Positions 41,585 through 60,986 of a stretch of 61,027 nt of DNA are shown here, in pieces; the first letter of the stretch is position 1; each line of letters opens with the position of its first letter. The notes below the pieces were generated by a model. The model ran no database searches. It worked only from the letters and a program-made list of their open reading frames with translations, and was not told the origin of the DNA. The stretch is from IMG/VR virus record IMGVR_UViG_3300033073_001175, positions 64,001 to 125,027 of that record; one strand, given 5' to 3'. This DNA comes from a virus (taxonomy: Duplodnaviria; Heunggongvirae; Uroviricota; Caudoviricetes). The translations under genes were made by a program, and so were the position numbers.

Positions 41585-43144
41585 TTAAATACATGATGGG
41601 TTAGAAATTATAATTCCATTAGAGAATTCATACAAAGTATACACCGAATTAATATTTGATATGTAATAACCATTAACATTTGATGGTGACGAAGCGTTAC
41701 AAGAAGAATAAACCGAGTCACCTACTTGTGGGTTAGGATTATTAAACCAAGCAGAAATCGCCCCTGAACCATAACAAGTTGATGAGTTTAAACAAGATAA
41801 TGAATTACAAGCCAGTAACAAGTCATTAATAAATGGACCTGATGTATTTGTTGAATAAGTCAGGTATATCTGATATTGATTTACTCCACAAGGTGACTGC
41901 GTAGGGGTTGGGGTCATAGTTTCAGTAGGGGTTGGGGCCATGGTTTCTGTGGGTGTGGGAGTTGGTATGTTTGAACCAAAAACCGCATTGATGCTAGCCC
42001 CACTAGATAAAAGGACTGACGCAACATTTGAACCTATTCCTCCGCCTATAATTACACCATAAGAACTCCAACCAGCAAAATAATAACCCATTGCAGGTAT
42101 TCCTGATATCGAGTATAATGTATTAAGCTCAACATCAATTGTTGTAGTGTTAGAGTATGGTGTCCCGTTAAACATAATAATACCTTGTGTTGGATTTATG
42201 TTAATTGTTAAAGGGACTAACGGATTAGGGGTTGGTGTTGGTGTTGGTGTAGGATTAGGGGTTGGTGTTGGCGTAGGGTAATCTTCATAAATAACCCAAT
42301 ATAAATTTTGTGGGCTAACGACAATATCCCCAAATGAATCTTCCTTAGTTAATAAGTTATAATCGTCAGCTAAAATAATTTGGGTCTTACCCGTAAATTC
42401 TCCGACAGATATTGTTACACCTGTTGATATTGTTATTGGTTCAGTATTAGTGCCCAACATATGAGTGAACTCCATACTTATTTCCTCATTATAAGTTTGA
42501 TTAGATGTTAATATATAATCTATTACAATTGAACCTGGTGTAATAACAGTTTCTAAGGTTACCGATAAAGGTAATGTTGTTGTAGTTGTAACAGGTTCAG
42601 GAAATGTTGTTGTAGTTGTAACAGGTTCAGGTATTGTTGTTGTAGTTGTTACGGGAGTTGGTGTAGGTTCAGGACATGTCGGACAACTAGGGCAAGGTGT
42701 TGTAGTTGTGGTTGTAATATAAGGAGGGTTAACACAACATGGGAATTCTGATGTGTAACAACTTTCATAAGGTAAATCATCAGCAATAAATGATTCCTGA
42801 ACATTAATGAATAATTTTTCACGAATTGGTAATATTAACACACCATCGTCACTTCTTAACATAAATTGACCCTCGTATCTACCCACTTTATTAGTGTCTC
42901 TGTTTTGGAATTGATAATAAATGTAGTACTCGGGTTCTGCATTAGGTTCTATAAATTCTTTCTCAACAAACCCCGCAGGTCTAGATGATATTTTAGGGAT
43001 ACCGCTTTCAACGTCAACCATAGAAAAGAATAATGCGGATAACTCTATTGTTTTCATAAAGTTATCGTAATCACTTCTACCATCCTTAACCACTTGTAAT
43101 TTTAACAATGGTAAAGTGGCGTTCTTTTTAATGAAAAATTCCAT
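41585..43144 (-). CDS. BppU-like baseplate/fibre protein with Thr-Pro linkers and Cys-containing domains
   Basis: N-terminal FFIKKNATLPLLKL...YYQFQNRDTNKVGRYEGQF (BppU-N pattern), several TP/TTTTT linkers, a GYYFAGWS repeat-type domain, Cys-rich C-terminal domain. Confidence 0.72.
   Translation of the reverse strand: MEFFIKKNATLPLLKLQVVKDGRSDYDNFMKTIELSALFFSMVDVESGIPKISSRPAGFVEKEFIEPNAEPEYYIYYQFQNRDTNKVGRYEGQFMLRSDDGVLILPIREKLFINVQESFIADDLPYESCYTSEFPCCVNPPYITTTTTTPCPSCPTCPEPTPTPVTTTTTIPEPVTTTTTFPEPVTTTTTLPLSVTLETVITPGSIVIDYILTSNQTYNEEISMEFTHMLGTNTEPITISTGVTISVGEFTGKTQIILADDYNLLTKEDSFGDIVVSPQNLYWVIYEDYPTPTPTPNPTPTPTPTPNPLVPLTININPTQGIIMFNGTPYSNTTTIDVELNTLYSISGIPAMGYYFAGWSSYGVIIGGGIGSNVASVLLSSGASINAVFGSNIPTPTPTETMAPTPTETMTPTPTQSPCGVNQYQIYLTYSTNTSGPFINDLLLACNSLSCLNSSTCYGSGAISAWFNNPNPQVGDSVYSSCNASSPSNVNGYYISNINSVYTLYEFSNGIIISNPSCI
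42571..42650 (-). repeat. 30-nt tandem repeat (about 2.7 copies) encoding TTTTT(I/F)PEPV
   Basis: Near-identical units at 42571-42600, 42601-42630 and 42631-42650. Confidence 0.9.
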
Positions 43145-43168
43145 CTATCTCTTTTGATTATAATTATT

Positions 43169-43639
43169 TTAAATTCCTAAATATGATATAATATTATGGT
43201 ATTCAAGCTTTAAAATTTCACGTTTATCAATCATTTCTTGGGGTATTGTCGTACCATCTAAAACATATCTTTCTATAGTTTCCTGCATTCCCTCTATCTG
43301 TGAAATTTTTTGGGAATATAAAATCCTAATTTTATTTTTCAGAACTTCTTTTCCATTTATGTTTAAATCTCCGTCCTCAGTTAATAGTGAATCATCATTT
43401 ATTGTTAATAAATATAATTTTTTTATCTCATCACTTAAAGATTCATAAATCAATGGAACACTAATTGTTAAATATATTGGTACATACCCTTCTCTTATAA
43501 CACTATTTTCATTGAAATTTTCTCTTAATTCCTCAAGCCCAATTTCATTATAGTAAACTATCATAGATTTATTTATTAATTCCCCGTTTATCTCAACCGT
43601 AGAATTAATTATCTGGTAAAATTTCTCGTTTTTTTTCAT
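43169..43639 (-). CDS. Hypothetical protein (possible fibre chaperone)
   Basis: 156 aa, directly downstream of the tailspike-like gene; helical C-terminus. Confidence 0.65.
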   Translation of the reverse strand: MKKNEKFYQIINSTVEINGELINKSMIVYYNEIGLEELRENFNENSVIREGYVPIYLTISVPLIYESLSDEIKKLYLLTINDDSLLTEDGDLNINGKEVLKNKIRILYSQKISQIEGMQETIERYVLDGTTIPQEMIDKREILKLEYHNIISYLGI

Positions 43640-43640
43640 A

Positions 43641-46600
43641 TTATAACCTTAATTTTAAATTAAATAAGTTTGTTACACCTGAAGGATTTGTTGACCAAGT
43701 AGGGGTTACCCATCTTATTTGTAGTCTATCCCCGCTAGTAACTGATAAAGGAGTACCCAAAACATAATTGTTATTTATTGAAGACGAAAGTCCGCTAATT
43801 GTTACGTTCCTAAGTCTTTTACCACTTGTACCTGTTGGGTTAACACTAAATCTTATTAACATTTGAGACGAAGTTGCAGGAATTGACACTGTAGAACTAA
43901 CATAATTTGTTGAACCTGTTGGTGTTGCCGTTGTTCCCGCACTTGTATAAGAGATACCATTATTTAACGAGTACTCTATTAATATAGGACCATCAGTACC
44001 CGCACCAAATTTAGCCACTTCAGTGGATACGTTTAAAGAAGCATATGCGGTACCATCAATTGATGGTGATGTTAATGTTGACGTTGTACCTGTTAAACCA
44101 GCATATGGTGACGCACCTGCAACAAACGTTGTTTGGAACGATGTCCAACCCGCTGGTTGTGTCCCTGAAGAAAATGGTTCAACGATTATTGATACAGGTG
44201 TTCCCGAAACATATTGTAATGTTGAAGTAACTACTTGAGAGGTGCTTGCCGATAAATTGTGTAGGGTTATTGTAGAGTTTTCAGAGGAACCTCCCCCAAA
44301 GTTAGAAATGATTGATACTTCGGTAATACTTCCCGTATATTGTGAATTAACCGTCCACGCGTCTCTGTTTGCGGTACTTGGTGTTAAACTTTGTAAGGCT
44401 CCAATATAATAAGTTGTTGCATCAGCAGGTCCGACAGAACTATGACCTAATACCATATTAACAAATGATGGTACATTAAGATATGTTGATGCTGATATAG
44501 TTGTTGCAGTTAAACCGCCAGTAACCGTCCATCCTGTAACCGAATTAATTACTGTAGTTAAATCAGGTTGACCATTATTTTGTTTTAACGTAAGAACATT
44601 ATTATTATAAGTGAATGCAGTTACAAAAGTGTTAGGGTCAACAGGTAAGTTCTGATATGTTGTCGCAGATATTGTTGTTGCCGTTAAATTACCATTTACC
44701 GTCCATCCTGTTACATTATTTATAGATGCCGTTAAATCAGGTTGACCATTGTTTTGTTGTAACGTAAATACATTATTACCGTATGTAAAACCTGTAACAA
44801 ATGTATTAGGGTCAACAGGTAAATTTTGATATGTTGTTGCTGATATTACATTACTTGTAATTGTCCCAGCACTATATATATCATTACCACCCATATTAAG
44901 GTCACCTTCCATAGCTCTCGACCCATCAACTAAAAGGTATTGTGTATGGTCATCGGCCGATAATCCTAATAAATTAGCATGTAGCGATGAAGCGTTAACC
45001 CCACCAGCCTTAAAACCAATTACAGGTCTAATATCCTCAATCTGAATAATATTTGAGGCTCCTTGTTGGACATAGATACTAGCGATTTGTGTGACAGAAT
45101 CATCAAAATAAGGTGGTGGTGTTGGTAACAACCCATTTTCAGTTTGTACTAATGTTGGGTATTGATTTTGACCTAATACTAAAAAATATTGTTCATTAAT
45201 ACCATCCCCAACTACATATAAAGTATGTTTTGTAAACGCCGTTGTAGGTAATGGGGATATTGTTCCACTTCCATCATCATACCCGTTTACGACTTCAGTT
45301 GTTGCTGAAGTAGTCCATCCTGTCGTACCATCACTGTAATACATTATAAATGTAATATTAGTTCCACCACTTGGTAGATACTCATTTGTTGAGTAGTAAT
45401 AATCACCACCTGTCACATCTAAATGATAAGGTGTTACATTTTCTGTTACAATTGACCCTGAGTCATAAATTGGTCCTAACGCATTTCTAAATAAATTACC
45501 ATATAAATTAGAAGTATGGTTAGCATTTAACGGGCTAGCATCAATCATTATAATGTCTGTGGAGTTAGTAACCACTCTACCAAGTACTATATTATAAATT
45601 GAATTCGGTCTTGTCCCTGTATTTGATAATATACCATTTTGATTTATATAGATATATTGATTACTATTTGCAGGTAATATATGTTTTATATCTGCCCAAT
45701 CATATCTTTTAATTATACCATTGTTAATTATACTTTCTAAATAACCATAACCTTCAGAAATATTTATTGTAAGACCACTTAAAATGGTAATTACACCACC
45801 CTCAAGAACCCCCATGGTCCCTCCCTCAAAAATAAGAGTGGATAAATCAGTGTGAGTTCCATCTTTAAAGGTAACTGATACTTTTCTTGTGATATCAAGT
45901 TCTCCATCTTCATGGTCTAAGAAACTCCAAAATACATTTTCAGATGAATTACTAATGTATTGGTGTGATAAACTTCCTTGTATAGTACCTTTAGTTTGAG
46001 GGTTATCAACCTGTAAATCATATGTGTTGGAATTAAAAATGCTTATCCCATCAATGTCAAAATAACAAGCCCCTCCTACATTAGGGAAATATACACCAAC
46101 ATCCCACCCTCTAATGTTAACATTAGATATTAATAAATTGGCATAGTCTTCCGATTTAAAAGCGATAGACCCTGGAGTGTTAACACCAACACAATCACCA
46201 CTGTTAAAACTTAATAATGACCCTAATCCTTGGCAAAAATTTGCTATAGTTGCAGAACCTGATGGAAAATTAAAATGGTTTTCTAATGATACCAACGAAC
46301 TATATCCATTGTTAGCACTAACATATACACCATATGAATATAAACCATTTAAATCGATATATTCACCATAAAATTGTGTGTTCGATACGGAAGAAGTAAC
46401 ACTAATATGTACATCATTATCGTACATAGATACTTTATGAACTAAGGCGAAACCATCGATATCCTCACATGAGATACCAATACCTGAAGTTGCTCCACTA
46501 ATAGTTAAGAAAGATATTTCACCTGTATTACCTAAATTAAATACTATGTTTGACGGGTCGTCAGGAGTAATTAACACAGTATTTATGTCGGCACCTACAA

Positions 46601-46928
46601 TACTAATATAGGGTTTATTTGATAAATCAATCGAAGGTTCTACATATATACCAGGTCCTACTTGAATAGAATATCTATTAGTAAATGATGACCCTGTTAT
46701 TGATTGAACGGCATCATACAATGTTGTAAATTGCACATTACCCCCTTTACCTACTTTTATAATATTTTGCACAAATGAATTATCTAAAACATATTCTGTT
46801 AGGTCATCTATTTTAGTTTCACTTGTTGTCCCTGACGGGTCAAGATAATTAACAAAAGGGACTATATCATTTGAGGTAAAACCTGTTCTACCAACATAAG
46901 GAAGTTCTGATATTTTTACGTTTGACAT
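43641..46928 (-). CDS. Tail fibre/tailspike with pectin-lyase-like beta-helix
   Basis: MSNVKISELP fibre N-terminus; GNVQFTTLYDAVQSI....IQVGPGIYVE...KPYISIVG beta-helix start; HANLLGLSADDHTQYL fibre motif; internal 58-aa repeats. Confidence 0.78.
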   Translation of the reverse strand: MSNVKISELPYVGRTGFTSNDIVPFVNYLDPSGTTSETKIDDLTEYVLDNSFVQNIIKVGKGGNVQFTTLYDAVQSITGSSFTNRYSIQVGPGIYVEPSIDLSNKPYISIVGADINTVLITPDDPSNIVFNLGNTGEISFLTISGATSGIGISCEDIDGFALVHKVSMYDNDVHISVTSSVSNTQFYGEYIDLNGLYSYGVYVSANNGYSSLVSLENHFNFPSGSATIANFCQGLGSLLSFNSGDCVGVNTPGSIAFKSEDYANLLISNVNIRGWDVGVYFPNVGGACYFDIDGISIFNSNTYDLQVDNPQTKGTIQGSLSHQYISNSSENVFWSFLDHEDGELDITRKVSVTFKDGTHTDLSTLIFEGGTMGVLEGGVITILSGLTINISEGYGYLESIINNGIIKRYDWADIKHILPANSNQYIYINQNGILSNTGTRPNSIYNIVLGRVVTNSTDIIMIDASPLNANHTSNLYGNLFRNALGPIYDSGSIVTENVTPYHLDVTGGDYYYSTNEYLPSGGTNITFIMYYSDGTTGWTTSATTEVVNGYDDGSGTISPLPTTAFTKHTLYVVGDGINEQYFLVLGQNQYPTLVQTENGLLPTPPPYFDDSVTQIASIYVQQGASNIIQIEDIRPVIGFKAGGVNASSLHANLLGLSADDHTQYLLVDGSRAMEGDLNMGGNDIYSAGTITSNVISATTYQNLPVDPNTFVTGFTYGNNVFTLQQNNGQPDLTASINNVTGWTVNGNLTATTISATTYQNLPVDPNTFVTAFTYNNNVLTLKQNNGQPDLTTVINSVTGWTVTGGLTATTISASTYLNVPSFVNMVLGHSSVGPADATTYYIGALQSLTPSTANRDAWTVNSQYTGSITEVSIISNFGGGSSENSTITLHNLSASTSQVVTSTLQYVSGTPVSIIVEPFSSGTQPAGWTSFQTTFVAGASPYAGLTGTTSTLTSPSIDGTAYASLNVSTEVAKFGAGTDGPILIEYSLNNGISYTSAGTTATPTGSTNYVSSTVSIPATSSQMLIRFSVNPTGTSGKRLRNVTISGLSSSINNNYVLGTPLSVTSGDRLQIRWVTPTWSTNPSGVTNLFNLKLRL
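44470..44846 (-). repeat. 174-nt (58-aa) tandem duplication inside the fibre gene
   Basis: ISATTYQNLP starts at 44846 and 44672, ISASTYLNVP at 44498; exact 174-nt period. Confidence 0.92.
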
Positions 46929-46943
46929 TCTATTTTTTTATTA

Positions 46944-46950
46944 ATAAATA
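46944..46950 (-). promoter_or_regulatory. Putative phage-specific promoter box TATTTAT for the fibre operon
   Basis: CTATTTATTAATAAAA context, 15 nt before the ATG at 46928. Confidence 0.5.
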
Positions 46951-46975
46951 GTTTGAAGTCGTAAAAATAAACTAT

Positions 46976-49351
46976 TTAACTCTCTTTTCTTAAAGAACCT
47001 TCATAATGGTCAAATCTATCGTGTTCAGTTGGAGTTAATAATAATAAACCTGACTTTATTTTACCCTTAATAGTTTCTTGATAGATGTGACTCATCCATG
47101 TTTGTTCAAAAGGATGACCCCATTTAGTTTCTAAAAACATTTTTCTATTACCTTCTTTAGAAACAATTTGAGGCCAATTACAATAATAAACCTCCCCAAT
47201 AGTATATGGTAATCCATTAAGACTCTTTATTGTTGTAAAATTAGTGGTTGGAGCGTTAGGGTCCAATCCATGTACAGGTAACCTTTTATTGTTTGGCCAT
47301 ATCTCTTCTCTCACTGTTTGAGGAACATTATACCAACTCCACTGAGTGGAATTATCTCCATAAAATTCAGAAAAATTTAATTTTATAAAATCTAAATTTT
47401 CATAGTCTATTATTGAAAGTGACTTGGTGTACAAGTTATCAACATATCGATTAAACCCATTTCGACAAACCTCTCCTTTTTTCGGGTAAAAAAACATGTC
47501 ATCCTCAAAAAAGAACATGTACTCTAAATCGGTACTATCAAAATGTTCGGCAATAAATTGTCTACCTCCACATATACCAAGATTATCTTTTTTAATATGT
47601 TCAAAGTTATATTCTTTACAAAGTTCTAAATATTTTTCTGTTGTTGATAAATCAGTCGAATTATCTAACAAATATTTTTTAGGTTTTTCTAAGAAATTTG
47701 AGTCATATTTTTTCATTGAAAAGAGAAGAGTCTCAAACTGTTTTGGACTATTAAAACCTATTACATATAAACCCACTTTACTCATGTCTTTAATTTTAAT
47801 ACTATCATCAACCGACTTTTCATTTTTAATAACCAAATCCCCATTTTTAAGATTTTCAAAAAATAACCAAACTAAACCGTTACCCTCAATTTCACTATGT
47901 TCAAATAAGTTAGGGTACTTATAAATCATAATACTAAAGATACTTTCTTCAGTTCCCATATACCCACTTGATAGGGTTGATGAAAGTAATTGGTAATATA
48001 GGTTATTTGTTTCGGTTATGGTTTCTTTTGGTCCTCCAAAAAATCCCCCTCTAGCAACTTTGTTAACATTGTTTCCCGCAAATTCACATATCTTGTTAAA
48101 CTCAAAACCATGTATTTCAGAATTTGTTTCATAAGGGAATGTTATAAATGTAAATTTATTTATTAATTTTGGTAGTTTGTCAATGACTTTATCGTGAGTA
48201 AAATATCCTGAGTTAACTGTATTAGTTAAACCAGCGTCAATCCAAAACATGTAATCAGAGTTAAACTTATCTAATATTTTAGCGTCATGTAATAAAAACA
48301 TTTTACCCATGACAAGTGGATTATACATTTCTAACTTAGACTGTGTTGATTCTGATAACCACCCTACTTGATTATACCATTCAGGATTAGTTCTTATTTT
48401 TTGGATTTTATCGTAAAATTCATTTTCTTTAAACCAATCTAATTCTCGATTGATGAACTGAGTATTAGATTGTTGTCTTCTTTCCCAAACAAATTTTTCT
48501 AATTCAGAATCACCAAAAATAATTAGGTTATTTTCTATTTTAAGTAACTCATCAAACTTTTTTAAATAGTGATTTTCATATGACCTTGACCATCCTTCAG
48601 TTAAATTATTACGACCCAAATCCCATAAACCTGTTACTAAAGTTACATTATTATCAATTTCTTTTTTATCGTTATTAACAAATTTACTTTTAACCTCCTC
48701 ATAGAAATCGAAAGGTAACGCAACAATATCTTGACCCGAAATTTCGTATTTATAGTTACTGTTATTAAACTTATCGATGATTTGATTTTGTTCTTCTTCA
48801 CTTAAATTAATCCATTCTAATCTAACAACTTTGGGCTGGTATTTTTTTAAATCAATTTGTTTAAATATATTAAAATCATGACCTTCAGCGTCTATTTTGA
48901 CAATATCAAAATATGATAAGTTATGTTTACTAATTAGGGTATCAAAAGTAATACACGGTACTTTTATTAATTTACCATACTTCTCAACTGTAGGTCTGTC
49001 AAACTCACTACCCAATCCATTTTTTGGGGGGTAAACGGCACTCATTCCATAAAAACAACTATGTACTAAACCACTATCAATAACTTCTTTGTCGATTGTT
49101 ACCATTTCAATAACACCGTTGTAATCTGATATTGCACTATTTTCAAATAGAGCATCATTTTTAATATTATTTTGTAATCTGTCAAAAAGATAGGGGATTG
49201 GTTCAACATACAACACCTTAAAATTATACATGTTGGTATATCCAATCATTTCATCAAACATAACACCATCCATAGACCCTATGTTTAAAGCAATTACTTT
49301 AGAAGTTGTTTCTCCTAAATAATGAAGAGATTTGTCAAAAAAATTATCCAT
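46976..49351 (-). CDS. Three-domain enzyme: FkbM-family methyltransferase + HtrL/YibB-like domain + GT-A glycosyltransferase
   Basis: NIGSMDG..VEPIP..VKIDAEGHD (FkbM); VTLVTGLWDLGR...FWIDAG (HtrL/WlaTC-like); LLDNS...GICGGRQ...YMFFFEDDM (GT-A). Confidence 0.78.
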   Translation of the reverse strand: MDNFFDKSLHYLGETTSKVIALNIGSMDGVMFDEMIGYTNMYNFKVLYVEPIPYLFDRLQNNIKNDALFENSAISDYNGVIEMVTIDKEVIDSGLVHSCFYGMSAVYPPKNGLGSEFDRPTVEKYGKLIKVPCITFDTLISKHNLSYFDIVKIDAEGHDFNIFKQIDLKKYQPKVVRLEWINLSEEEQNQIIDKFNNSNYKYEISGQDIVALPFDFYEEVKSKFVNNDKKEIDNNVTLVTGLWDLGRNNLTEGWSRSYENHYLKKFDELLKIENNLIIFGDSELEKFVWERRQQSNTQFINRELDWFKENEFYDKIQKIRTNPEWYNQVGWLSESTQSKLEMYNPLVMGKMFLLHDAKILDKFNSDYMFWIDAGLTNTVNSGYFTHDKVIDKLPKLINKFTFITFPYETNSEIHGFEFNKICEFAGNNVNKVARGGFFGGPKETITETNNLYYQLLSSTLSSGYMGTEESIFSIMIYKYPNLFEHSEIEGNGLVWLFFENLKNGDLVIKNEKSVDDSIKIKDMSKVGLYVIGFNSPKQFETLLFSMKKYDSNFLEKPKKYLLDNSTDLSTTEKYLELCKEYNFEHIKKDNLGICGGRQFIAEHFDSTDLEYMFFFEDDMFFYPKKGEVCRNGFNRYVDNLYTKSLSIIDYENLDFIKLNFSEFYGDNSTQWSWYNVPQTVREEIWPNNKRLPVHGLDPNAPTTNFTTIKSLNGLPYTIGEVYYCNWPQIVSKEGNRKMFLETKWGHPFEQTWMSHIYQETIKGKIKSGLLLLTPTEHDRFDHYEGSLRKES

Positions 49352-49352
49352 A

Positions 49353-52924: not shown

Positions 52925-54172
52925 TTATAAATTACCTGTTAATCTTTCACACCATCCTTTTGAGGTACTATAAGGCCATACGACCCAATATTTAGGTTTA
53001 TGACTTGTTTGGAACTCTCTCCAAACTTTACAATACCCATCAGGGTCATTCATCATATTATTTATTTCATTAATATCAGCATCTTTTCTAAAGATAGTTT
53101 CGTCTTTTTCATCATGAAATGCAACAACCCAAAATTCATAATCTTTTTCGGGAACTTGGGAGAATCCTATATCAATACAATGTTTGAAAATTGACGCGAA
53201 ACTATTTTCCCATTCTTCTTCGGTTTCGTATATTGTTGGATTTGGTGGATAATGTTTGTCTAAAGTGTATTGTTGTACCGCTCTTCTTGAGAATCTTAAT
53301 CCTGAATATATTTCGTAATCTTTTAAAGTCCTTTCAGTTCCAAAACCATATTTACTAAAATCTAAAAGAACCTCTTCACCGTCCATACCAAATAGTTGTC
53401 TATTTTTAGAATGTGATAAATTATTTTTAGAAACCCAATCTTTATCGTCATCCCATTGTTTAGTCCTTCCTTTACGAGTATACTCATGCCAAATCACAAC
53501 TTTATGTGGGTGAAATAAATCATAACCATGTGTATAAGCTCTTGCGGCGATTGAGATTTCTTCTCCGTGAAAATAAAATTCGGGGTCATGCTGAACTTCC
53601 TCGCTAAATTTACCAATTGTAAATGCAAAATGCGCCGAATAGAATCTTGCAGTTACAGGTTCTTTCATTTCTTGCCATCCAGGAATTGTTTCAGGTAGGA
53701 AAAACACCGCACCTTCAGGAATAAATCTATCAAAAACCATTCTCCATGGTTCTTGAACTCTACCTTCAGGGTCATTGTCAGGGTCAAAAGACGAAACATA
53801 ACCAGTTAATAGAGGTTTCTCAAACCCTTTTTTTTGTAATTGTTTAACCATCTTAATCAAAGTGTCATCCCAATCCTTCTCAAATCTCATATGTGAATCA
53901 ATTTGTAAAGTATAATCTTCACCTTTATATTGTTGTTGAGTTAAATTTCTCGCCCAACAAACACCTTTAGATTCTGAATATAAAACATCAATAATTCTAA
54001 ATCTTTTATCAGTTCTATATTCATCTAAATTATCAAATCCATCTTCAGGATGAAATTGTCTACAAATACTTAAAACCAAATTTTTTGGTCTTTTAGCAGT
54101 TTCAAACATATTCTTAATTGTGGGTAATAATTGAGGGTCTCTGTACGAGGCAATTTGTACGAAAATTTTCAT
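52925..54172 (-). CDS. GT60-family polypeptide alpha-N-acetylglucosaminyltransferase (Gnt1/TcOGNT2-like)
   Basis: IFVQIASYRDP, SKGVCWAR, YTLQIDSHMRF..DWD (DSH metal motif), FYSAHFAF, FHGEEISIAARAYTHGYDLFHP. Confidence 0.88.
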   Translation of the reverse strand: MKIFVQIASYRDPQLLPTIKNMFETAKRPKNLVLSICRQFHPEDGFDNLDEYRTDKRFRIIDVLYSESKGVCWARNLTQQQYKGEDYTLQIDSHMRFEKDWDDTLIKMVKQLQKKGFEKPLLTGYVSSFDPDNDPEGRVQEPWRMVFDRFIPEGAVFFLPETIPGWQEMKEPVTARFYSAHFAFTIGKFSEEVQHDPEFYFHGEEISIAARAYTHGYDLFHPHKVVIWHEYTRKGRTKQWDDDKDWVSKNNLSHSKNRQLFGMDGEEVLLDFSKYGFGTERTLKDYEIYSGLRFSRRAVQQYTLDKHYPPNPTIYETEEEWENSFASIFKHCIDIGFSQVPEKDYEFWVVAFHDEKDETIFRKDADINEINNMMNDPDGYCKVWREFQTSHKPKYWVVWPYSTSKGWCERLTGNL

Positions 54173-54211: not shown

Positions 54212-54218
54212 ATAAATA
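54212..54218 (-). promoter_or_regulatory. Putative phage-specific promoter box TATTTAT for the glycosylation operon
   Basis: Sense-oriented copy in the 57-nt gap upstream of the GT60 gene. Confidence 0.5.
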
Positions 54219-54229
54219 GGTTTTGTCAA

Positions 54230-57200
54230 TTAACAAGATGCACAAGTACCACCTAATGTGATTGATGCAGTACCGCTAGTAACTACAGGTACAGTTGTAG
54301 AACATTTAAATGTTCCTGTTGACGCTGGTAAAGTAACTGAAGTTTCACCAGCATTACCACAACAACCTGTGAACGTAACTCTAGCACCTAATGTACCTGA
54401 AGTAATGTTATATCGGAAACAAGTTGGGGTTGCCGTAGGTGTAGAAGTTTTAGTTGGGGTTAAAGTTTTAGTAGGGGTTACAGTAGGTGTGCGAGTTATT
54501 GTTGGGGTCACTGTAGGAGTTACTGTTGGAGTTGGCGTTGGTGTAGGACATATATTAGAACTTGTACAAGACACACAACTAGCGTATGTAGTACCACCAT
54601 TCCATATTACTGTTGCAACTGTACCACCTAAACCTGAAATTTGTTGACAGACTCCTGACGTATCAACAACTACAGACCCTATTACAGTTGATGAAGGTAA
54701 ATAAATCACATCAACTAAATTATTACAACAGTTTTTAGTAAAGAAGAATGAGTAAGGTGTACTAGGTGTTATTGTTGGTGTTACCGTTGGGGTAGGTGTT
54801 TTAGTTGGTGTTATTGTAGGTGTAACAGTATTTGTTGGTGTAACCGTATTACTAGGTGTTTGGGTTATTGTAGGTGTAACAGTATTTGTTGGTGTAACTG
54901 TTGGTGTTTGAGTTCTTGTTGGGGTTAATGAAATTGTTGGGGTGACTGTCGGTGTTGCAGTATTACTTGGGGTTTGAGTAATTGTTGGTGTTACCGAATT
55001 AGTTGGTGTTACCGAATTAGTTGGTGTTATGGTATTTGTTGGAGTAACTGAATTAGTAGGTGTTTGAGTTACGGTTGGTGTCTGTGTATTAGTTGGTGTT
55101 ATGGTATTTGTTGGTGTTACCGTTTTAGTAGGTGTCGGAGAAGCACCTGGAGTACCTGTATTACTTGGGGTTACTGTGTTAGTAGGTGTAATTGACGGTG
55201 TTTGTGTGTTTGTTGGTGTTATAGTATTTGTTGGTGTCTGCGTATTTGTTGGTGTTACGGTTTTAGTAGGGGTAACCGAATTAGTTGGAGTAACAGTTAT
55301 AGTTGGTGTCTGCGTATTAGTTGGTGTAATGGTATTTGTTGGTGTTATACTTGGTGTTTGAGTTACGGTTGGCGTTTGTGTATTTGTTGGAGTAACTGAA
55401 TTGGTAGGTGTTATTGATGGTGTAGGAGTAACTGTTGGAGTTACTGAATTGGTAGGTGTTATGGTATTTGTTGGAGTTACTGAATTGGTAGGAGTTACTG
55501 AATTAGTAGGTGTTTGAGTTACGGTTGGTGTCTGCGTATTAGTTGGTGTTATGGTATTTGTTGGTGTTACCGTTTTAGTAGGTGTAACAGTGTTAGTTGG
55601 GGTAACTGAATTAGTAGGTGTTATGGTATTTGTTGGAGTAACCGAGTTCGTAGGTGTTATGGTATTTGTTGGAGTAACTGAATTTGTAGGTGTAATGGTA
55701 TTTGTTGGAGTAACTGAATTTGTAGGTGTAATGGTAGGGGTAATAGTATTAGTCGGTGTTACTGAATTAGTTGGGGTAACTGTATTTGTAGGTGTCACCG
55801 TATTTGTAGGTGTCACCGTCACCGTATTGGCAGGTGTTTGAGTAACAGTTGGTGTTACGGTTTTAGTAGGTGTGATTGTATTAGTAGGTGTAACTGTATT
55901 TGTTGGTGTTACTGAATTAGTAGGTGTAACTGTATTTGTCGGTGTTACGGTTTTAGTAGGGGTAACCGAGTTCGTAGGTGTAATGGTATTGGTCGGAGTA
56001 ACTGTATTTGTTGGTGTTATAGTGTTAGTTGGGGTAACTGAATTTGTAGGTGTTATAGTATTAGTAGGCGTTTGAGTTATTGTTGGTGTTACTGAATTAG
56101 TAGGTGTTTGAGTTATTGTAGGAGTAACTGAGTTTGTAGGTGTAACGGTATTAGTTGGGGTAACAGTATTTGTTGGTGTCACTGAATTGGTAGGGGTAAC
56201 AGTATTTGTTGGTGTCACTGAATTAGTAGGTGTTTGAGTTATTGTAGGCGTTACCGAATTAGTTGGAGTATTGGTCGGTGTTAAAGATATTGTAGGGGTT
56301 ATACTAGGTGTTTGAGTGTTTGTTGGGGTTGCAGTAGGTAAAATTGACTTAGTAGGTGTATTGGTAGGTGTATTAGTTGGAGTTTTTGTAGGTGTTTTAG
56401 TTGGAGTTTTAGTTGGTGTAGGTGTTTTAGTTGGAGTTTTAGTTGGAGTTTTGGTTGGGGTAGTCGTTTTAGTAGGTGTAGGTGTTTTTGTAGGTGTTTT
56501 TGTTTGTGTCGGAGTTTTAGTTGGGGTTTTAGTTTGTGTAGGTGTTTTTGTAGGTGTTTTTGTTTGTGTCGGAGTTTTAGTTGGGGTTACTGTAGGTGTT
56601 ATTGTTGGAGTTACTGTAGGTGTTGATGTCACAGTTGGGCTAGGTGTTATAGTAACGGTATTTGTTGGGGTTATTGTAGGTGTTACAGTATTACTTGGAG
56701 TTACTGTAGGTGTTGGAGTTGGGCAAGGATGGATTGTTTGGCAGTCAACACATGATACAATTGATGTAATATCATTACATATATAAGCATTAGTTGTGAA
56801 TGTTGGGGCGATATGTGTAACACACCCATTAAAACCCGTACTCTCAACGTAATAGACTCCACTTAAAGGGTTAAAACCTATTGGGATAGTTGAAATAACC
56901 AAAATATTTGACGGGTCACAACAATCCTGGAAATATCCAACGATGGGTACCATACTTGTCGATGGTGTCACTGATGGGGTAGATGTTCTTGTTTGTGTTA
57001 CACTTGGGGTGACAGGTGGTATTATAGGACAACCTCCGCCTACACATACTCCACCGATTGTTATCCCAACAATAGGGTCGTCAGAGGTAGGATTTTTACC
57101 ACAAAAAAATAAATTTGTTTCTGCGGAAATAATGGTTTCAATAAGTACATTATTACAATTAATAAATGAAATTGAGTGTTCTACTAAATCAGGATTTTCA

Positions 57201-57496
57201 AATTCTATACAATTACAACTTACGTCCATCGTTGGAGTAATTGTTGGAGTCATTGTAGGTGTTTGACTTGGGGTGTTACATTGTATTAATTGTAACGTTT
57301 CACACCCATCAAAATCTATTAATTTTACGATTACTTCATTTACACCGTCTAATAATGTTGGTAATGGAAATTGGTAAGATGGGGGAATAGAAACCGCAGA
57401 AGCAATTGGTATACATATTGATAATGTAATATCACATACCTCAATGTCGTAAGGACTAGTACCTGTTGCCGCGGTGATTTCTATTATTTGACTCAT
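54230..57496 (-). CDS. Mucin-like Thr/Pro-repeat virion appendage protein with four Cys-rich globular domains
   Basis: 1088 aa; about 650 aa of TPT(N/K)(T/S)(V/I) repeats plus shorter TP linkers separating Cys-rich domains. Confidence 0.88.
54755..56722 (-). repeat. About 2 kb coding tandem repeat, mainly 18-nt/hexapeptide TPTN(S/T)(V/I), with a K-rich sub-block ([10 protein letters not shown])
   Basis: Read directly from the sequence and translation; third codon positions vary, and there are local near-exact duplications. Confidence 0.95.
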
Positions 57497-57516
57497 TTAA
57501 TAATACATATTCATTA

Positions 57517-58143
57517 TTACACACTATCTTCAGTAACAATATAATTATTATCTTCCGAAATTATAGAGTACCCTGACTCACTAATAATGTATATACCTGG
57601 TTTAGGAGATGGGGTGACCGTAACACTTGGGGTAGGTGTGTTTGATAGGGTAGGTGTTGGTGTATTTTTACAATCAGTAGGTGTCGGTGTAGGCGTTTTA
57701 CTTGGTTTAGGTGTTTTACTTGGTTCAGGACAACCACAAGGATTGGTACAAGTTTGACTAGGTGTTAAACTTATTGTTGGGGTCACTGTAGGTGTTGAAG
57801 TTTTAGTAGGTGTTGGTGTTGGAACTTTACAAGGGTCAAATGATGGTGTTGGTGTTATGGTTGGCGTTACCGTAGGGGTTTGGGTTCTTGTCACACTAGG
57901 TGTCGGTGTAGGTGTAGGTGTTGGTTCAGGTACATTTAAGTAATAAGTACAGTTTTGTTCAACTATAAAAATAGTATAAGTACCATAAGGTCTTAATGGT
58001 GGAGATAACAATGATGGTTTAAATTCAAACGGTAATGTTATATTACCTAAATTAACAACCCTTTCAGATTTTGATGGGTTAAATAACACATTAGCTAATT
58101 CTCCATCGTAATTTATACTGTTTATTATAATAATTTCACTCAT
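57517..58143 (-). CDS. Thr/Pro-rich putative virion appendage protein
   Basis: 208 aa; small beta domain, PTPTPT repeats with CTNPCGC, C-terminal IISESG.SIISED..IVTED. Confidence 0.82.
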   Translation of the reverse strand: MSEIIIINSINYDGELANVLFNPSKSERVVNLGNITLPFEFKPSLLSPPLRPYGTYTIFIVEQNCTYYLNVPEPTPTPTPTPSVTRTQTPTVTPTITPTPSFDPCKVPTPTPTKTSTPTVTPTISLTPSQTCTNPCGCPEPSKTPKPSKTPTPTPTDCKNTPTPTLSNTPTPSVTVTPSPKPGIYIISESGYSIISEDNNYIVTEDSV

Positions 58144-60986
58144 TAATTAGAACTTTTTTCTATCGCTAAACAAACTTCACCGTTTTGTCTAATAAGTTTA
58201 TTCATATCATTAAAGGAAATAAACGCATGTCCTTGTTTACCCCAAGAACGACCCCAACTATTTTTAATCCTAAATTGACTTTTAACCGTATCAACACCGT
58301 TAATAACATATGCGTGCCCACCTAAAATAACACCATTAGCTCTAATTAAACCATTATTATCAGGTCTACTCATTGAGGAATACCAATTAGTCCCAACGAC
58401 AACAGGTCCCTTGGTTAAGACTGTTGAGATTAGAGTGTTTAAATCATAAGTCCATAAGTAAGACTCGATTCTACCAATACTTCTTAAGAATTTAGCTCCC
58501 GCTCTAACTGACGTACCATCATAATTTTCACCAGGCCATTCATCTATTTTTTGAGCCTCTCTATAAATTAAAGATGGTGGTACTATAGGAGGAGTACCTC
58601 CGTGAGTGATAGGACCATCCTCAACCCAATGAGCCCAAGCGTATCCAACACATTGAGGGGTATTACCTTGGTCCCCCCACCACTCATCCGCGTTCCAAAA
58701 CCTTGTTTTAGGTCTAACCGTTGGTAATTGTAATTTATTTTGAATTAAGAAATCCTTATCTCTTGGGTCCTCAATGTAAATTCTACCTAAAGGTGTAACA
58801 ACTTCATCATTGTCTGTTACCGAAGGTACGTCTTCAATTACATATGTGATATCATTAGGTTTACAAAACAACGTTGAACAATCAGGGCAATCAGGATTAA
58901 ACATGTTAAATTTACTAACTTGTAAATTAAAATTATGTTTAACTTCAGGTGCAGACATCGGCTCAACATACATTCTAAATTGCGAAATTGCACCCTCAAA
59001 AGTACCTGCGAAATTTTGTTCTATTAAAATATTGGTTTTCAAACCATTAAAGGTTGTCCCTACAAAATCATTAGTTGGGAAACATTCTGGGTCTTGGATA
59101 TAAGGTCCATTAGGTAAAGTTGTTGATGAAAATGTTAAGTTTTCCCTAAGACCTTGAGTTCCTCCACCCCATGAAATGTTAAATGGAACACCAACTTGCT
59201 TTTCTTTATCGGTGTTTAACGCTCTTGGGATAATCTCCTCAAAATCTTCAATGGTATGAAATATCTTACCATTAACATAGATTTTAAGTCTACCTTTTCT
59301 CATTTTACCTTCGATAAGCCATTTTTCATTTAATTGAATTAAATCTATTTTTTCGGCTATTTTACCGTTTGGTCTAGTGTATGGTACAGTAATTAAAGAT
59401 GTTGTATTATTCGCTAAAGATTCTAAGTAGACATTTTTTGTAATATCACCTAACCCTCCTCGATACTTCAAATCACAGAAATCAAACCAAGTGTATCTTT
59501 CCCAAACAACATTAACTTGGAACCAATGTTCTTCATTTAACCATGCAGGATTTTCTTTCTCACATCTTGGGTATATTGGTTTAGTACATATATCAGTAAT
59601 TGTATATCCTGTAGAGTACGTTATACCACTATTAGAACATTCCCCTGAAGTTGTACAGTCTCCTGTAAATCTTAAAAATCTAACACCTATTTGAGGATTT
59701 TTAGGGTCTCCACATAATCTTAATGAGAACGCATTTGACATAGAGTCGTATAAAGGGTCTTTTTCACAAGTGTCCTCAATTGATGTAAAACCACTTGGTT
59801 TACAATCTAAACAATCATTGCAAGTGTCGCAGTTTGTACACGTTTGAGTACAAGTAGGTGTTACTATACAGTTTGAAGATGTTGGGGTTGGTGTAGGTGT
59901 AGGAGTTACTAAAGGTGTAGGTGTTGGTGGGCAATCGTGTGTTTGACATTCCCATCCACAAGTTTCACATTGTATTTTGTCACAACCACATCCACACGAT
60001 ATTTGTATGTCTCTTTTACCATTACAAGAATCACATCCATAATTAACATGTGGGTCATGTTTACCATCTTTAGACCTTGGTGGGTAAACATAGATACATC
60101 TACTATTTTTAATTTCCGTGTTGCAACAAGCACATGTACTTAACCCTGTTAAAGGTGTTGTAACTCTAGTGTATCCTGTAAAACAATTGGGTGTTCCATC
60201 GGCATGATGGTAAAATTTATTTTCAGCACGAGTCCCAAAATAAAAAAATGTATTTTTATTGTTTGGATATATTTCATTTAATGTAGTCTCGCCAGGACCT
60301 GGCACATATTCGTTAAACAATCTTGGTTTAAGTATCATTTCAACTGACCAACCTTTAGTCATCCTTTCAGGTAATATGTCATACTCATAACCATGTAATT
60401 TGTAAAATCCTTGATAAAACCCACCATACAATTCATGGTATCTACCAATAACAGGGTCAGTTTTACTAACAACTTCATATAAAACGGTGTTATTAAAACC
60501 TGAAAATCTCACATTTGGGGTATTAGTATATCCCGTAACTTGGAACATTTTAAATCTTCTATCAAACTCAAACCTATTAAATTTTAGAAAATCGTTCAGT
60601 AAACCATTAGTAAATGTAATTGTTTGACCTGTCATACTATTGACCAAACCATTGTCAATACCAGTTAATCCTATATCACAAGAAGTTTGAGCAGTGAAAC
60701 ATTTTAAGTCTAAATTATCAGGGTTATAATAATTCTGAGAAACAAAAATATTATTGGTATTATAGTTCTTATAAGTTAAATTTAAATTTTGTACGGTATC
60801 AACATTATTAATGTCGATATTAATTGGGAGTTTATTACCATAAGTCTGTGCAATAAGATACGGTGAGAAAACTACTTCCTGATTAAAATCTATTTCATCA
60901 GATGTTAAAGACATATCATAGTTACCCAAATAAAGTTTTGGGAATAAATTCGGTCTCACATATTGATTTATATTTTGATTCGACAT
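58143..60986 (-). CDS. LamG/concanavalin-like protein with a Cys-rich insertion and a C-terminal papain-like (C1A) peptidase
   Basis: GWSVEMILKP...RLKIYVNG...FEGAISQFRMYVEPMSAPEV (LamG); DQGNTPQCVGYA, GGHAYVING, FRIKNSWGRSWG (Gln/Cys/His/Asn of papain). Confidence 0.85.
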   Translation of the reverse strand: MSNQNINQYVRPNLFPKLYLGNYDMSLTSDEIDFNQEVVFSPYLIAQTYGNKLPINIDINNVDTVQNLNLTYKNYNTNNIFVSQNYYNPDNLDLKCFTAQTSCDIGLTGIDNGLVNSMTGQTITFTNGLLNDFLKFNRFEFDRRFKMFQVTGYTNTPNVRFSGFNNTVLYEVVSKTDPVIGRYHELYGGFYQGFYKLHGYEYDILPERMTKGWSVEMILKPRLFNEYVPGPGETTLNEIYPNNKNTFFYFGTRAENKFYHHADGTPNCFTGYTRVTTPLTGLSTCACCNTEIKNSRCIYVYPPRSKDGKHDPHVNYGCDSCNGKRDIQISCGCGCDKIQCETCGWECQTHDCPPTPTPLVTPTPTPTPTSSNCIVTPTCTQTCTNCDTCNDCLDCKPSGFTSIEDTCEKDPLYDSMSNAFSLRLCGDPKNPQIGVRFLRFTGDCTTSGECSNSGITYSTGYTITDICTKPIYPRCEKENPAWLNEEHWFQVNVVWERYTWFDFCDLKYRGGLGDITKNVYLESLANNTTSLITVPYTRPNGKIAEKIDLIQLNEKWLIEGKMRKGRLKIYVNGKIFHTIEDFEEIIPRALNTDKEKQVGVPFNISWGGGTQGLRENLTFSSTTLPNGPYIQDPECFPTNDFVGTTFNGLKTNILIEQNFAGTFEGAISQFRMYVEPMSAPEVKHNFNLQVSKFNMFNPDCPDCSTLFCKPNDITYVIEDVPSVTDNDEVVTPLGRIYIEDPRDKDFLIQNKLQLPTVRPKTRFWNADEWWGDQGNTPQCVGYAWAHWVEDGPITHGGTPPIVPPSLIYREAQKIDEWPGENYDGTSVRAGAKFLRSIGRIESYLWTYDLNTLISTVLTKGPVVVGTNWYSSMSRPDNNGLIRANGVILGGHAYVINGVDTVKSQFRIKNSWGRSWGKQGHAFISFNDMNKLIRQNGEVCLAIEKSSN

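Follow-up and report, generated by a model that had tools for sequence, protein, structure and literature searches.

A cassette of five closely packed genes in the analysed window (the whole 61,027-nucleotide stretch of DNA) is led by a glycosyltransferase of family GT60 and flanked by genes for Thr/Pro-rich proteins, and with moderate confidence it can be read as serving to O-glycosylate, in the cytoplasm, Thr/Pro stalks that the phage itself encodes. What the cassette modifies, with which sugar and in what order its enzymes act, and where on the virion its product lies, are all inferred.

The window comes from an uncultured freshwater giant phage. Nine ORFs had been delimited in the initial annotation of this DNA, and all nine were recovered with exactly the same coordinates, each on the minus strand:

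58143..60986, minus strand: 947-aa protein with a C-terminal papain-like (C1) peptidase; first gene of the upstream Thr/Pro block
57517..58143, minus strand: 208-aa candidate acceptor; small N-terminal domain, then about 100 aa of Thr/Pro tracts
54230..57496, minus strand: 1088-aa mucin-like protein, directly upstream of GT60; prime candidate acceptor
52925..54172, minus strand: GT60 glycosyltransferase, 415 aa (PF11397, phrog_24687); conserved first cassette gene
51988..52923, minus strand: putative GT-B-like variable gene, 311 aa; language-model lead
51122..51997, minus strand: putative fucosyltransferase-like variable gene, 291 aa; language-model lead
49353..51113, minus strand: three-module enzyme, 586 aa; helical N-domain, GT-A and SAM-dependent sugar O-methyltransferase
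46976..49351, minus strand: FkbM methyltransferase with tandem GT-A, 791 aa (PF05050, PF09612); conserved last cassette gene
41585..43144, minus strand: 519-aa protein with three Thr/Pro tracts (101 aa in all); conserved N-domain at aa 1-135

The five cassette genes abut as first described, with intergenic spacings of 1, -10, 8 and 1 nt in order. No TM segment was found in any cassette protein and the enzymes are evidently soluble; as there is no membrane protein in the cassette, it therefore contains no membrane-embedded priming transferase, flippase or polymerase. The TATTTAT box ascribed to the cassette is present as CTATTTAT upstream of the GT60 start, and this element occurs 5 times in the window, always in minus-strand orientation, in intergenic DNA (2.6% of the window) and 16-40 nt 5' of a gene start. 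The CTATTTAT box is common to GT60 and tail-block genes, and a TATTTAT-type box lies 12 nt upstream of 58143..60986. Two of the copies border the cassette, the second of them preceding a further gene:

54212..54219, minus strand: promoter-like CTATTTAT element, 40 nt before the GT60 start
46944..46951, minus strand: CTATTTAT box, preceding the fibre-like gene by 16 nt
43641..46928, minus strand: internally repetitive 1095-aa protein resembling a fibre or spike, so described from sequence only

The lead enzyme had been called a GT60 homologue, an identity that is secure: it matches PF11397 with E 1e-72 (246 bits, cutoff 21) and phrog_24687 with E 2e-169, and as judged by its sequence is a bona fide GT60. 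Residues D92-x-H94, E204/E205 and H229 are invariant across 42 diverse GT60 homologues, and the protein is 74-95% identical to its counterparts in 80 IMG/VR loci and 48.8% identical to ORF334 of Xanthomonas phage XacN1. Both characterised activities of CAZy family GT60 use polypeptide acceptors; relatives in protists start mucin-type sugar chains, and Dictyostelium Gnt1 acts on a single residue of one folded protein. The enzyme is predicted to be an initiating polypeptide alpha-GlcNAc-transferase.

The fifth gene also bears out its description as a methyltransferase joined to HtrL and a glycosyltransferase, with FkbM (PF05050) at residues 1-215, HtrL_YibB (PF09612) at 235-490 and a GT2-like domain at 520-791 by Pfam and AF2/Foldseek. 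Residues 232-791 form two tandem GT-A domains (AF2 pLDDT 88), and the top Foldseek matches (LH3, mimivirus R699, K4CP, LARGE1 and PmHS2) are all tandem-GT-A enzymes. It is this tandem part that is kept across loci, with 41% identity both to XacN1 ORF330 and to TARA contig L084. The fourth gene is likewise a glycosyltransferase fused to a methyltransferase, comprising a helical N-domain (residues 1-115), a GT-A (about 121-345) whose AF2 model has KfiA (5z8b; E 1.5e-8, TM by target 0.65-0.68) as best PDB match in Foldseek, and a sugar O-methyltransferase (about 400-586) matching MycE (3ssm, 1e-15) and TylE (8ia9, 4e-14); these modules are found as separate ORFs in L005 and L010. HMM and structure searches thus assigned genes 1, 4 and 5, but genes 2 and 3 by lead only, as their GT-B and fucosyltransferase-fold labels find ESM-Atlas feature leads but no match by Pfam, NCBIfam or PDB sequence search. 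The product of 51988-52923 shares 197-199 features with PF13524 clusters (score 0.96) and may be a GT-B-like enzyme of the Glyco_trans_1_2, GT90 or RXYLT1_C-like kind, with a counterpart in only some relatives. That of 51122-51997, whose true start is likely the ATG at 51991, scores 0.94-0.97 with NodZ/FUT8_N_cat clusters and is possibly fucosyltransferase-like (NodZ, FUT8 or O-FucT); only 2 of 80 related loci hold a counterpart.

An arrangement with conserved ends and a swappable middle is seen on comparison with 80 related phage contigs from IMG/VR, whose loci share descent. GT60 opens and HtrL-GT closes the set in the window, as they do in about 70 of the IMG/VR loci, XacN1, the TARA contig and about 37 of 80 loci from bacteria, and between them the related phage contigs hold 55 gene clusters in 38 architectures. 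The middle genes include glycosyltransferases of families GT2, GT10, GT25, GT34 and GT7C, several methyltransferases, a carbamoyltransferase, an epimerase and a HAD + nucleotidyltransferase protein.

The Thr-Pro repeats reported on both sides of the cassette are borne out, and (TP)3-coding DNA in the window was observed 10 times against 0.01 expected. The 1088-aa protein consists of a conserved N-domain of about 73 aa, Cys-rich domains and a hexapeptide (TPTN[ST][VI]) stalk of about 680 aa encoded by an 18-bp unit repeated about 72 times at 54951-56234; it is 34% Thr and 15% Pro overall (43% and 19% over residues 256-935), has no TM segment or signal peptide, and its orthologs in relatives range from 254 to 1653 aa. 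The 208-aa protein (19% Thr, 18% Pro) has syntenic homologues in related loci. In the 947-aa protein, a Cys-rich middle and a PTPTP linker (aa 352-374) accompany the peptidase domain, which matches PF00112 and phrog_16701 and is 40% identical to XacN1 ORF382. The 519-aa protein has no match in the phage database; most relatives encode it in the same place, flanked by the cassette and polB (51-90% identity, about 65 loci). These four proteins had been termed structural-looking; none has a structural match in Pfam or PHROG, the C1 peptidase being the sole domain matched. The fibre-like protein has no TP tract, no Pfam or PHROG family match and weak homologues in related loci; a structural role for it is suggested.

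Further tracts lie in the tail genes of the window:

29492..29599, minus strand: Thr/Pro insert, aa 285-320 of the 1109-aa tail sheath (phrog_23)
19496..19558, minus strand: SPTTTTTTATPPPP tract, aa 1020-1040 of a 1695-aa protein in the tail/baseplate gene block
10529..10576, minus strand: SPTPTPTPSPTPV tail at the C-terminus of a 2229-aa tail-block protein

The sheath matches phrog_23, with PF04984 and PF17482 over aa 827-1100, and its insert places TP tracts in a certain virion protein. The 1695-aa protein is encoded between the genes for baseplate hub, tube and sheath, and a CTATTTAT box precedes its gene. Across the genome, the proteins carrying TP tracts are the sheath, the giants of the tail block and appendage-like proteins; none of the identified replication enzymes has one.

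The proposed co-occurrence of GT60 with TP repeats holds in part. Of 78 loci, 53 have a TP-rich gene immediately preceding GT60 and 25 do not, while 165 of the 1068 other ORFs are TP-rich; as the phage loci are related by descent, these counts are not independent events. Among viral contigs picked only by (TP)5-coding DNA, 9 of 68 carry PF11397 against 1 of 74 controls picked by collagen-like repeats (Fisher p = 0.007), but 59 of the 68 are without GT60, as are 5 of the 6 that are at least 90% complete; TP linkers therefore exist apart from the enzyme. In distant phages, GT60 adjoins a 116-aa S/T/P tract and a Peptidase_S74 fibre (L085, 45-50% identical), has three TP ORFs upstream (L217, 58% identical) or is paired with a Thr/Pro-tract protein (L218). 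A bacterial pairing is likewise partial: in Ralstonia, Achromobacter and Paraherbaspirillum (Burkholderiales), VgrG spikes with C-terminal (TP)n tails of 40-136 aa are encoded 2-3 genes from GT60, but 51 of 80 GT60 loci in bacteria lack a Thr/Pro-rich ORF within 8 kb.

Virion O-glycosylation is established in mycobacteriophages. XacN1, which shares the bracket of the window (ORF334...ORF330), has 29 (TP)3 motifs against 0 in a control. Schiff staining of its virions revealed at least two glycoproteins, attributed by the authors to ORF328 and ORF334, the latter being the GT60 homologue (PMC5852040). The novelty first supposed for the system must be narrowed, as the idea was proposed for XacN1 ORF334 (PMC5852040) and has a mycobacteriophage precedent.

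It is unlikely that GT60 instead modifies a non-Thr/Pro protein, either the conserved N-domain (about 73-95 aa) of the 1088-aa protein, which stands alone upstream of GT60 in some relatives, or a host protein, with the tracts being plain flexible linkers. Such an acceptor would suit the single-residue target of Gnt1, the stand-alone N-domain homologues of 94-98 aa, devoid of TP tracts, that immediately precede GT60 in L213, L214, L218 and L219, the peptide-recognition PqqD domains adjoining GT60 in L086 and L353, and the many GT60 loci missing TP-rich neighbours; however, both the (TP)n DNA enrichment and the VgrG-(TP)n neighbourhoods speak for the tracts as the target, and the L353 PqqD protein carries TP tracts itself. 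Remodelling of host LPS, capsule or EPS for superinfection exclusion or receptor masking, with the Thr/Pro genes as mere neighbours, is rather improbable. A jumbo-phage review reads polymorphic glycosyltransferase clusters in this way (PMC7824862), HtrL/YibB is named for an LPS-core-region gene of E. coli, LPS and capsule loci typically hold GT25, GT2 and GT10 enzymes such as those of the middle, and O-antigen-like loci likewise show a hypervariable middle. This is countered by the lack of any membrane protein, and hence of priming transferase, flippase and polymerase, by the polypeptide substrates of characterised GT60 members, by the enrichment of GT60 with TP-tract DNA and its VgrG-(TP)n neighbours, and by the glycoproteins in XacN1 virions (PMC5852040).

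Hypermodification of phage DNA with a glycan, evading restriction, is very improbable. The TP-tract association would be left unexplained, to our knowledge no GT60 member acts on DNA, and MycE-type sugar O-methyltransferases and up to six GT domains exceed known DNA glycosylation systems; no hydroxymethylase was found, and in two complete relatives the sole TS-family gene scores above cutoff as a ThyA equivalog. In its favour, polB lies less than 6 kb from the cassette in the window, GT60 is near polB and RNase H in XacN1, a distant homologue (L088) has the order DnaB, GT60, N6/N4 DNA methyltransferase, and phage glycosyltransferases build multi-sugar DNA glycans, as cited in PMC12619734.

The mucin-type reading of the initial annotation thus stands as to a real, soluble, GT60-led cassette and a recurrent Thr/Pro link, but Thr/Pro tracts often occur without GT60. 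In the favoured reading, O-glycosylation of Thr/Pro stalks, the phage would make the 1088-aa, 208-aa and 519-aa stalk proteins beside the cassette, along with a tail sheath and giant tail-block proteins bearing shorter TP inserts. The soluble GT60 would then put a first HexNAc, probably alpha-GlcNAc from host UDP-GlcNAc, on Thr/Ser hydroxyls of the tracts; Thr/Ser is favoured over hydroxyproline because no PF13640 prolyl hydroxylase is present in the window's contig and four relatives, three of them at least 91% complete. Chain extension would fall to the conserved tandem GT-A enzyme (HtrL + GT2-like), the variable middle genes (GT-B-like, fucosyltransferase-like and KfiA-like GT-A in the window) would give strain-specific branches, and the two methyltransferase domains may add O-methyl caps to the sugars. 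The product would be a stiff, protease-resistant and antigenically variable "bottle-brush" on the virion appendages.

The gene that opens the five-gene cassette, at 52925-54172, does encode a member of glycosyltransferase family GT60, as the initial annotation had held: its product matches PF11397 at 246.1 bits against a cutoff of 21 (E 9.8e-73), over profile positions 93-350 together with an N-terminal stretch. A whole-contig profile search agrees, and the protein matches phrog_24687 at E 2e-169. In an alignment of 42 homologues of 37-51% identity, D92, H94 (in QIDSHMRF), E204/E205 and H229 are invariant; the D-x-H motif and the downstream His presumably form a GT-A type metal-binding motif, as in GT27 and GT60. 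PF11397 is the sole Pfam family match of the protein, with no GT27 or ricin-type lectin domain found by Pfam, and sequence comparison with the PDB gave no useful match. The system may act like mucin glycosylation while being no member of the GT27-initiated mucin-type class sensu stricto. The GT60 family counts 4595 cluster representatives (E ≤ 1e-3), with single proteins carrying up to five GT60 domains; among cultured phages it is rare (4 of 50,697 records). P0004, P0005, P0006, P0011, P0016 and P0026 are giant proteins of 1600-2460 aa with four or five tandem GT60 domains. The idea that TP tracts form part of the GT60 proteins themselves was set aside, such a fusion being seen in only 4 of 150 representative homologues.

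All of the open reading frames that had been claimed were located at their coordinates, on the minus strand, in a check of the sequence; the fibre-like gene is listed along with them:

Cassette genes and neighbouring Thr/Pro (TP) and fibre-like genes
58143-60986, minus strand, TP protein ending in a C1 peptidase
57517-58143, minus strand, small TP protein (208 aa)
54230-57496, minus strand, large TP protein (1088 aa)
52925-54172, minus strand, gene 1, GT60
51988-52923, minus strand, gene 2
51122-51997, minus strand, gene 3
49353-51113, minus strand, gene 4
46976-49351, minus strand, gene 5
43641-46928, minus strand, fibre-like gene
41585-43144, minus strand, TP protein (519 aa)

The description of a tightly coupled cassette is borne out by intergenic gaps of 1, -10, 8 and 1 nt. 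The highest 19-residue hydropathy over the five proteins does not exceed 1.22, and none of them therefore has a TM segment. Thr/Pro appendage-like genes lie on one side of the cassette and the fibre-like gene on the other, which places the glycosyltransferase genes among structural-type genes. The observations of the initial annotation (reading frames, GT60, repeats and upstream box) are thus confirmed, and its interpretation, in which the phage makes its own mucins and the machinery to glycosylate them, is supported in part.

The profile and structure search proposed with that annotation identified, beyond GT60, the domains of genes 4 and 5. Gene 4 consists of three modules: a helical N-domain, a GT-A domain whose AF2 model has the heparosan GlcNAc-transferase KfiA as its top PDB match (E 1.5e-8), and a C-terminal methyltransferase resembling the macrolide-sugar O-methyltransferases MycE (1e-15) and TylE. 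Gene 5 combines an FkbM methyltransferase with HtrL_YibB by Pfam; the latter (PF09612 / TIGR02192) scores 66-69 bits against a Pfam cutoff of 24.1, whereas under the NCBIfam HtrL_YibB equivalog it scores 68 against a cutoff of 265, so the protein is a member of the HtrL_YibB family and not a YibB orthologue. Residues 232-791 of this 791-aa protein, which has no useful sequence match in the PDB, are predicted to form two GT-A domains (pLDDT 88), and the best structural matches of the model are tandem-GT-A enzymes: human LH3, mimivirus R699, the chondroitin polymerase K4CP, LARGE1 and the heparosan synthase PmHS2. The predicted fold is closest to these (E 2e-11 to 1e-7), with only 9-12% identity and a global TM of 0.25-0.30, the latter being low because the domain arrangement differs. 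Neither profiles (Pfam to E 10, NCBIfam) nor PDB sequences match genes 2 and 3; their earlier labels, GT-B and fucosyltransferase-fold, stand only as ESM-Atlas feature leads (Glyco_trans_1_2/GT90/RXYLT1_C for gene 2, NodZ/FUT8/O-FucT for gene 3). Likewise, the protein segments P0001:1-395 and P0002:505-791 have no GT family by Pfam (E up to 10) or NCBIfam.

In comparing related loci, a pattern of conserved ends and a swappable middle is seen. GT60 at 74-95% identity occurs in 80 IMG/VR loci with a common frame of LamG/C1 protein, small TP protein, large TP protein, GT60, a variable middle, HtrL-GT, the 519-aa TP protein and polB. The conserved ends are GT60 and the tandem GT-A part of gene 5 (HtrL-GT); the FkbM domain and genes 2-4 are variable. 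The 248 ORFs that the middle region contains across 70 loci fall into 55 clusters and 38 architectures, with the Pfam families GT2, GT10, GT25, GT34, GT7C, several methyltransferases, a carbamoyltransferase, an epimerase and a HAD-nucleotidyltransferase. A Pfam scan of representatives of the 20 largest of these clusters found no lipid-carrier pathway family (membrane-embedded priming transferase, flippase or polymerase). The GT60-first/HtrL-GT-last layout recurs in the Xanthomonas jumbo phage XacN1 (ORF334-ORF330), in one TARA marine contig, and in about 37 of 80 bacterial loci from Gemmatimonadota, Acidobacteriota, Pseudomonadota and others. By analogy with O-antigen loci, such an arrangement suggests glycan diversification under selection.

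The window belongs to a 125-kb IMG/VR viral contig, 43% complete by CheckV, with genes for tail sheath, tail tube, baseplate hub, RNR, a DnaB-like helicase, a UvsX-like recombinase and a family-B DNA polymerase. Given this set of tail and replication genes, the contig is a fragment of a jumbo myophage; the contigs of relatives reach 321-322 kb. The host is probably a member of the Bacteroidota, a lead that comes from the nearest bacterial-MAG matches of the GT60 gene (Saprospiraceae/Bacteroidia contigs, 66-72% identity) and from SprB repeats (PF13573, E 1.5e-8) in a 482-aa PT-linker protein encoded outside the window (G000:C1:42945-44393, equal to L220:4945-6393), such repeats being typical of Bacteroidota gliding adhesins. 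Near-identical DNA was found in freshwater, reservoir and estuary metagenomes (12 studies), with no RNA dataset among the sequencing runs listed for it, and a 20 kb megablast query against INPHARED gave no match. In the 322-kb relative, the thymidylate synthase match (G001:C1:5332-7607) falls into three separated pieces with two open frames (229 and 281 aa), and the ThyA ORFs of relatives G002 and G003 are over-long (367 and 423 aa) and match in two stretches; this suggests a gene interrupted by an insertion, possibly an intron or homing element.

The Thr-Pro repeats are real. The large protein at 54230-57496 is 34% Thr, rising to 43% Thr and 19% Pro over residues 256-935, and its hexapeptide repeat is encoded by an 18-bp unit in about 72 copies; the window holds 10 occurrences of (TP)3-coding DNA where 0.01 would be expected. 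None of the four flanking Thr/Pro proteins matches a structural family, the sole domain being the C1 peptidase at the end of 58143-60986, and the 519-aa protein has no match in INPHARED. Over the whole contig, Thr/Pro/Ser tracts were found in thirteen ORFs, whereas its recognised replication and nucleotide-metabolism enzymes lack them. Tracts outside the cassette region include:

TP tracts elsewhere on the contig
Tail sheath (tract at aa 285-320, with the conserved sheath domains following at 827-1100)
Two giant tail-block proteins
The SprB-repeat protein

At least some TP tracts therefore sit in proteins that certainly belong to the virion. Plus-strand ORFs over the repeat gene (54258-57266; for example 56316-56786, a poly-GV peptide) were rejected as antisense artefacts of its ACN-CCN repeats, which also account for the GC skew of +0.42 to +0.46 at 54-58 kb.

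The first ~73 residues of the large TP protein form a small N-domain, of which stand-alone homologues (94-98 aa, 34-45% identity) lacking a Thr/Pro tract lie close to GT60 in other loci:

Stand-alone homologues of the N-domain
L213:7268-7552
L214:7762-8058
L218:8306-8593
L218:13139-13429
L219:4149-4442

Judging from these sequences, the N-domain looks like a conserved partner of the cassette in its own right.

The TATTTAT box reported ahead of the cassette also has substance. The element CTATTTAT occurs five times, always on the minus (coding) strand and always in intergenic DNA, which makes up 2.6% of the window, at 16-40 nt upstream of starts; the genes downstream are GT60, the fibre-like gene, two tail-block genes and 426-884.

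Copies of CTATTTAT
916-923, minus strand
22631-22638, minus strand
24615-24622, minus strand
46944-46951, minus strand
54212-54219, minus strand

This phage lineage may use the element as a promoter. Looser TATTTAT boxes are present ahead of the tail tube gene, 26243-27064, 58143-60986 and the helicase at 33842.

The association of GT60 with Thr/Pro tracts extends beyond this contig. Of 78 related loci, 53 have a TP-rich gene immediately upstream of GT60, compared with 165 TP-rich ORFs among 1068 others, a comparison that is only descriptive because the loci are related. The upstream gene varies in length between 254 and 1653 aa, which shows that its repeats evolve rapidly. A more distant phage (L085, GT60 45-50% identical) carries a 116-aa S/T/P tract and a Peptidase_S74 fibre gene, while L217 (GT60 58% identical) has three TP ORFs upstream and L218 (42% identical) repeats the pairing. 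When viral contigs were chosen only for (TP)5-coding DNA, with collagen-like (GPx)4 DNA defining the controls, PF11397 was present in 9 of 68 and 1 of 74, respectively (Fisher p = 0.007), and in 7/15 versus 1/13 of those of at least 60 kb. The co-occurrence that the initial annotation proposed to test is an enrichment and not a strict pairing: no GT60 is seen in 59 of the 68 (TP)5 contigs (including 5 of the 6 that are at least 90% complete), the upstream TP-rich gene is absent in 25 of the 78 related loci, and 51 of 80 bacterial GT60 loci have no TP-rich ORF within 8 kb. TP tracts, then, do not need GT60, and GT60 need not adjoin its target.

Since opposite-strand TP-rich ORFs in high-GC bacterial loci may be spurious frames, only Pfam-confirmed bacterial TP ORFs (VgrG, PqqD, LamG) were relied on as evidence. 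On three chromosomes a VgrG spike (Phage_GPD + gp5 OB + Gp5_trimer_C) with a C-terminal (TP)n tail of 40-136 aa is encoded 2-3 genes from GT60:

VgrG-(TP)n genes near GT60
L387:10267-13131, Ralstonia
L404:13049-15520, Achromobacter
L362:11897-14386, Paraherbaspirillum

This is an independent case in which a cytoplasmically assembled, phage-tail-like TP protein adjoins the enzyme. Similar-sized ORFs with PPTE/TPEP repeats were noted in Trinickia (L384) and a second Achromobacter (L392). PqqD domains (RiPP recognition element) lie directly beside GT60 at L353:7215-7940 and L086:747-1864; the latter adjoins a ScmC-family gene, and in a Gemmatimonadaceae MAG PqqD is fused to Thr/Pro tracts. Such neighbours hint at peptide-directed glycosylation clusters in bacteria.

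Among the closest known systems is that of XacN1, whose virions show at least two Schiff-positive bands, with ORF328/ORF334 proposed as makers (Yoshikawa et al. 2018, PMC5852040); the glycoproteins, the GT family and the TP tracts were not identified in that publication. Since XacN1 has the homologous operon, these bands give indirect support for glycans on virion proteins. A search for literature on GT60 in phages and on jumbo-phage glycoproteins returned only the XacN1 paper and general mentions, with a moraphage paper naming glycosyltransferases in passing. The XacN1 GT60 and HtrL-GT are 48.8% and 41% identical to those of the window and hold the same first and last places; XacN1 also has a homologue of the papain-like peptidase and many (TP)3 motifs (29, against 0 in a reversed control) in large ORFs including ORF325, which adjoins the baseplate wedge. 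It differs in its middle genes, a carbamoyltransferase and two unknowns, and in its gammaproteobacterial host.

In protists, GT60 enzymes include Gnt1 of Dictyostelium and Toxoplasma, acting on hydroxyproline of Skp1, and the pp-alpha-GlcNAc-T of T. cruzi and Dictyostelium, acting on Thr of mucin-like proteins. The phage enzyme shares their Pfam family and keeps the D-x-H, EE and His positions; it is soluble like Gnt1, without the membrane anchor of the Golgi enzymes, and has Thr-rich candidate acceptors as does the trypanosome enzyme. It differs in its phage/bacterial origin and in an extra C-terminal region of ~110 aa past the Pfam domain. A search for the prolyl 4-hydroxylase partner with one family model, PF13640, gave no match in this contig or in four relatives (three at least 91% complete); the pathway is therefore not of the Skp1 type (PhyA + Gnt1), and a linkage to hydroxyproline appears less likely than one to Thr/Ser.

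According to the summary of Freeman et al. 2023 in PMC12619734, mycobacteriophage glycosyltransferases of other families, encoded among structural genes, are believed to glycosylate structural proteins of their own phage within the cytoplasm; the glycans sit on C-terminal extensions of capsid and tail-tube subunits. The placement among structural-type genes is shared; the present system differs in its GT60 lead enzyme, its conserved ends and swappable middle, its candidate acceptors (Thr/Pro stalks of up to ~680 aa) and its host, probably Bacteroidota rather than Actinomycetota. Virus-encoded soluble fusions of multi-domain glycosyltransferases and sugar methyltransferases are likewise found in chlorovirus PBCV-1, where A064R joins two rhamnosyltransferase domains to a methyltransferase domain. 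The PBCV-1 fusions build a virus-specific, methyl-capped virion-protein glycan outside any secretory pathway; in this eukaryotic virus, the major capsid protein carries them in N-linkage at atypical sites, and unlike the present phage it has neither a GT60 initiator nor Thr/Pro stalks.

We favour, with moderate confidence, a function in cytoplasmic O-glycosylation of the phage's own Thr/Pro stalks, for which we infer both the chemistry and the location in the virion. GT60 would initiate on the stalks, the tandem GT-A enzyme would build a conserved glycan core, and the swappable transferases with the methyl (elsewhere carbamoyl) capping enzymes would diversify it. Polymorphic glycosyltransferase clusters of jumbo phages have also been read as remodelling host surface polysaccharide (PMC7824862), and the variable middle and LPS-type families fit this; yet the cassette has no membrane component of any kind, its lead enzyme is of a polypeptide-directed family, and the TP enrichment and the XacN1 glycoproteins point to protein, making remodelling quite improbable here.

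That DNA is the substrate could be argued from the nearby polB and from a locus (L088) with the arrangement DnaB-GT60-methyltransferase. The only gene of the thymidylate synthase (TS) family in two complete relatives (G002 and G003) is, however, a ThyA equivalog above cutoff (NF002496, 351 and 338 bits against 325), no pyrimidine hydroxymethylase was found, and this contig, 43% complete, has no TS-family gene. We know of no GT60 member that acts on DNA, and consider this very improbable. An acceptor that is a protein other than the TP tracts, as the stand-alone N-domain homologues just upstream of GT60 at four loci and the PqqD domains with GT60 in L086 and L353 could indicate, is unlikely. 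Equally speculative is a broader proposal by analogy, that GT60 and the tandem GT-A enzyme constitute a general glycosylation module of contractile injection machines, coating Thr/Pro stalks of phage tails and T6SS VgrG spikes, in which the tandem enzyme, similar in architecture to LARGE1 and the glycosaminoglycan synthases, would like them build up a chain of repeating disaccharides from the residue that GT60 has primed; phage fibres would then be proteoglycan-like, with the swappable middle setting the serotype.

Virion glycosylation is already known in mycobacteriophages, and a homologous XacN1 gene had been linked to virion glycoproteins by its authors. As cultured carriers exist (XacN1, Xoo-sp13, CM1 and RAS14), glycosylation of the Thr/Pro stalks is directly testable. 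If true, it would add abundant jumbo phages of Gram-negative hosts, from fresh and marine waters, to the mycobacteriophages as phages with glycosylated virions, and would give a prokaryotic role to GT60, whose biochemistry is, to our knowledge, known only from protists. It would also account for Thr/Pro stalks, a widespread feature of phage appendages that some VgrG spikes share, with the diversification of the glycan bearing on phage stability, recognition by grazers or immune systems, and adhesion.
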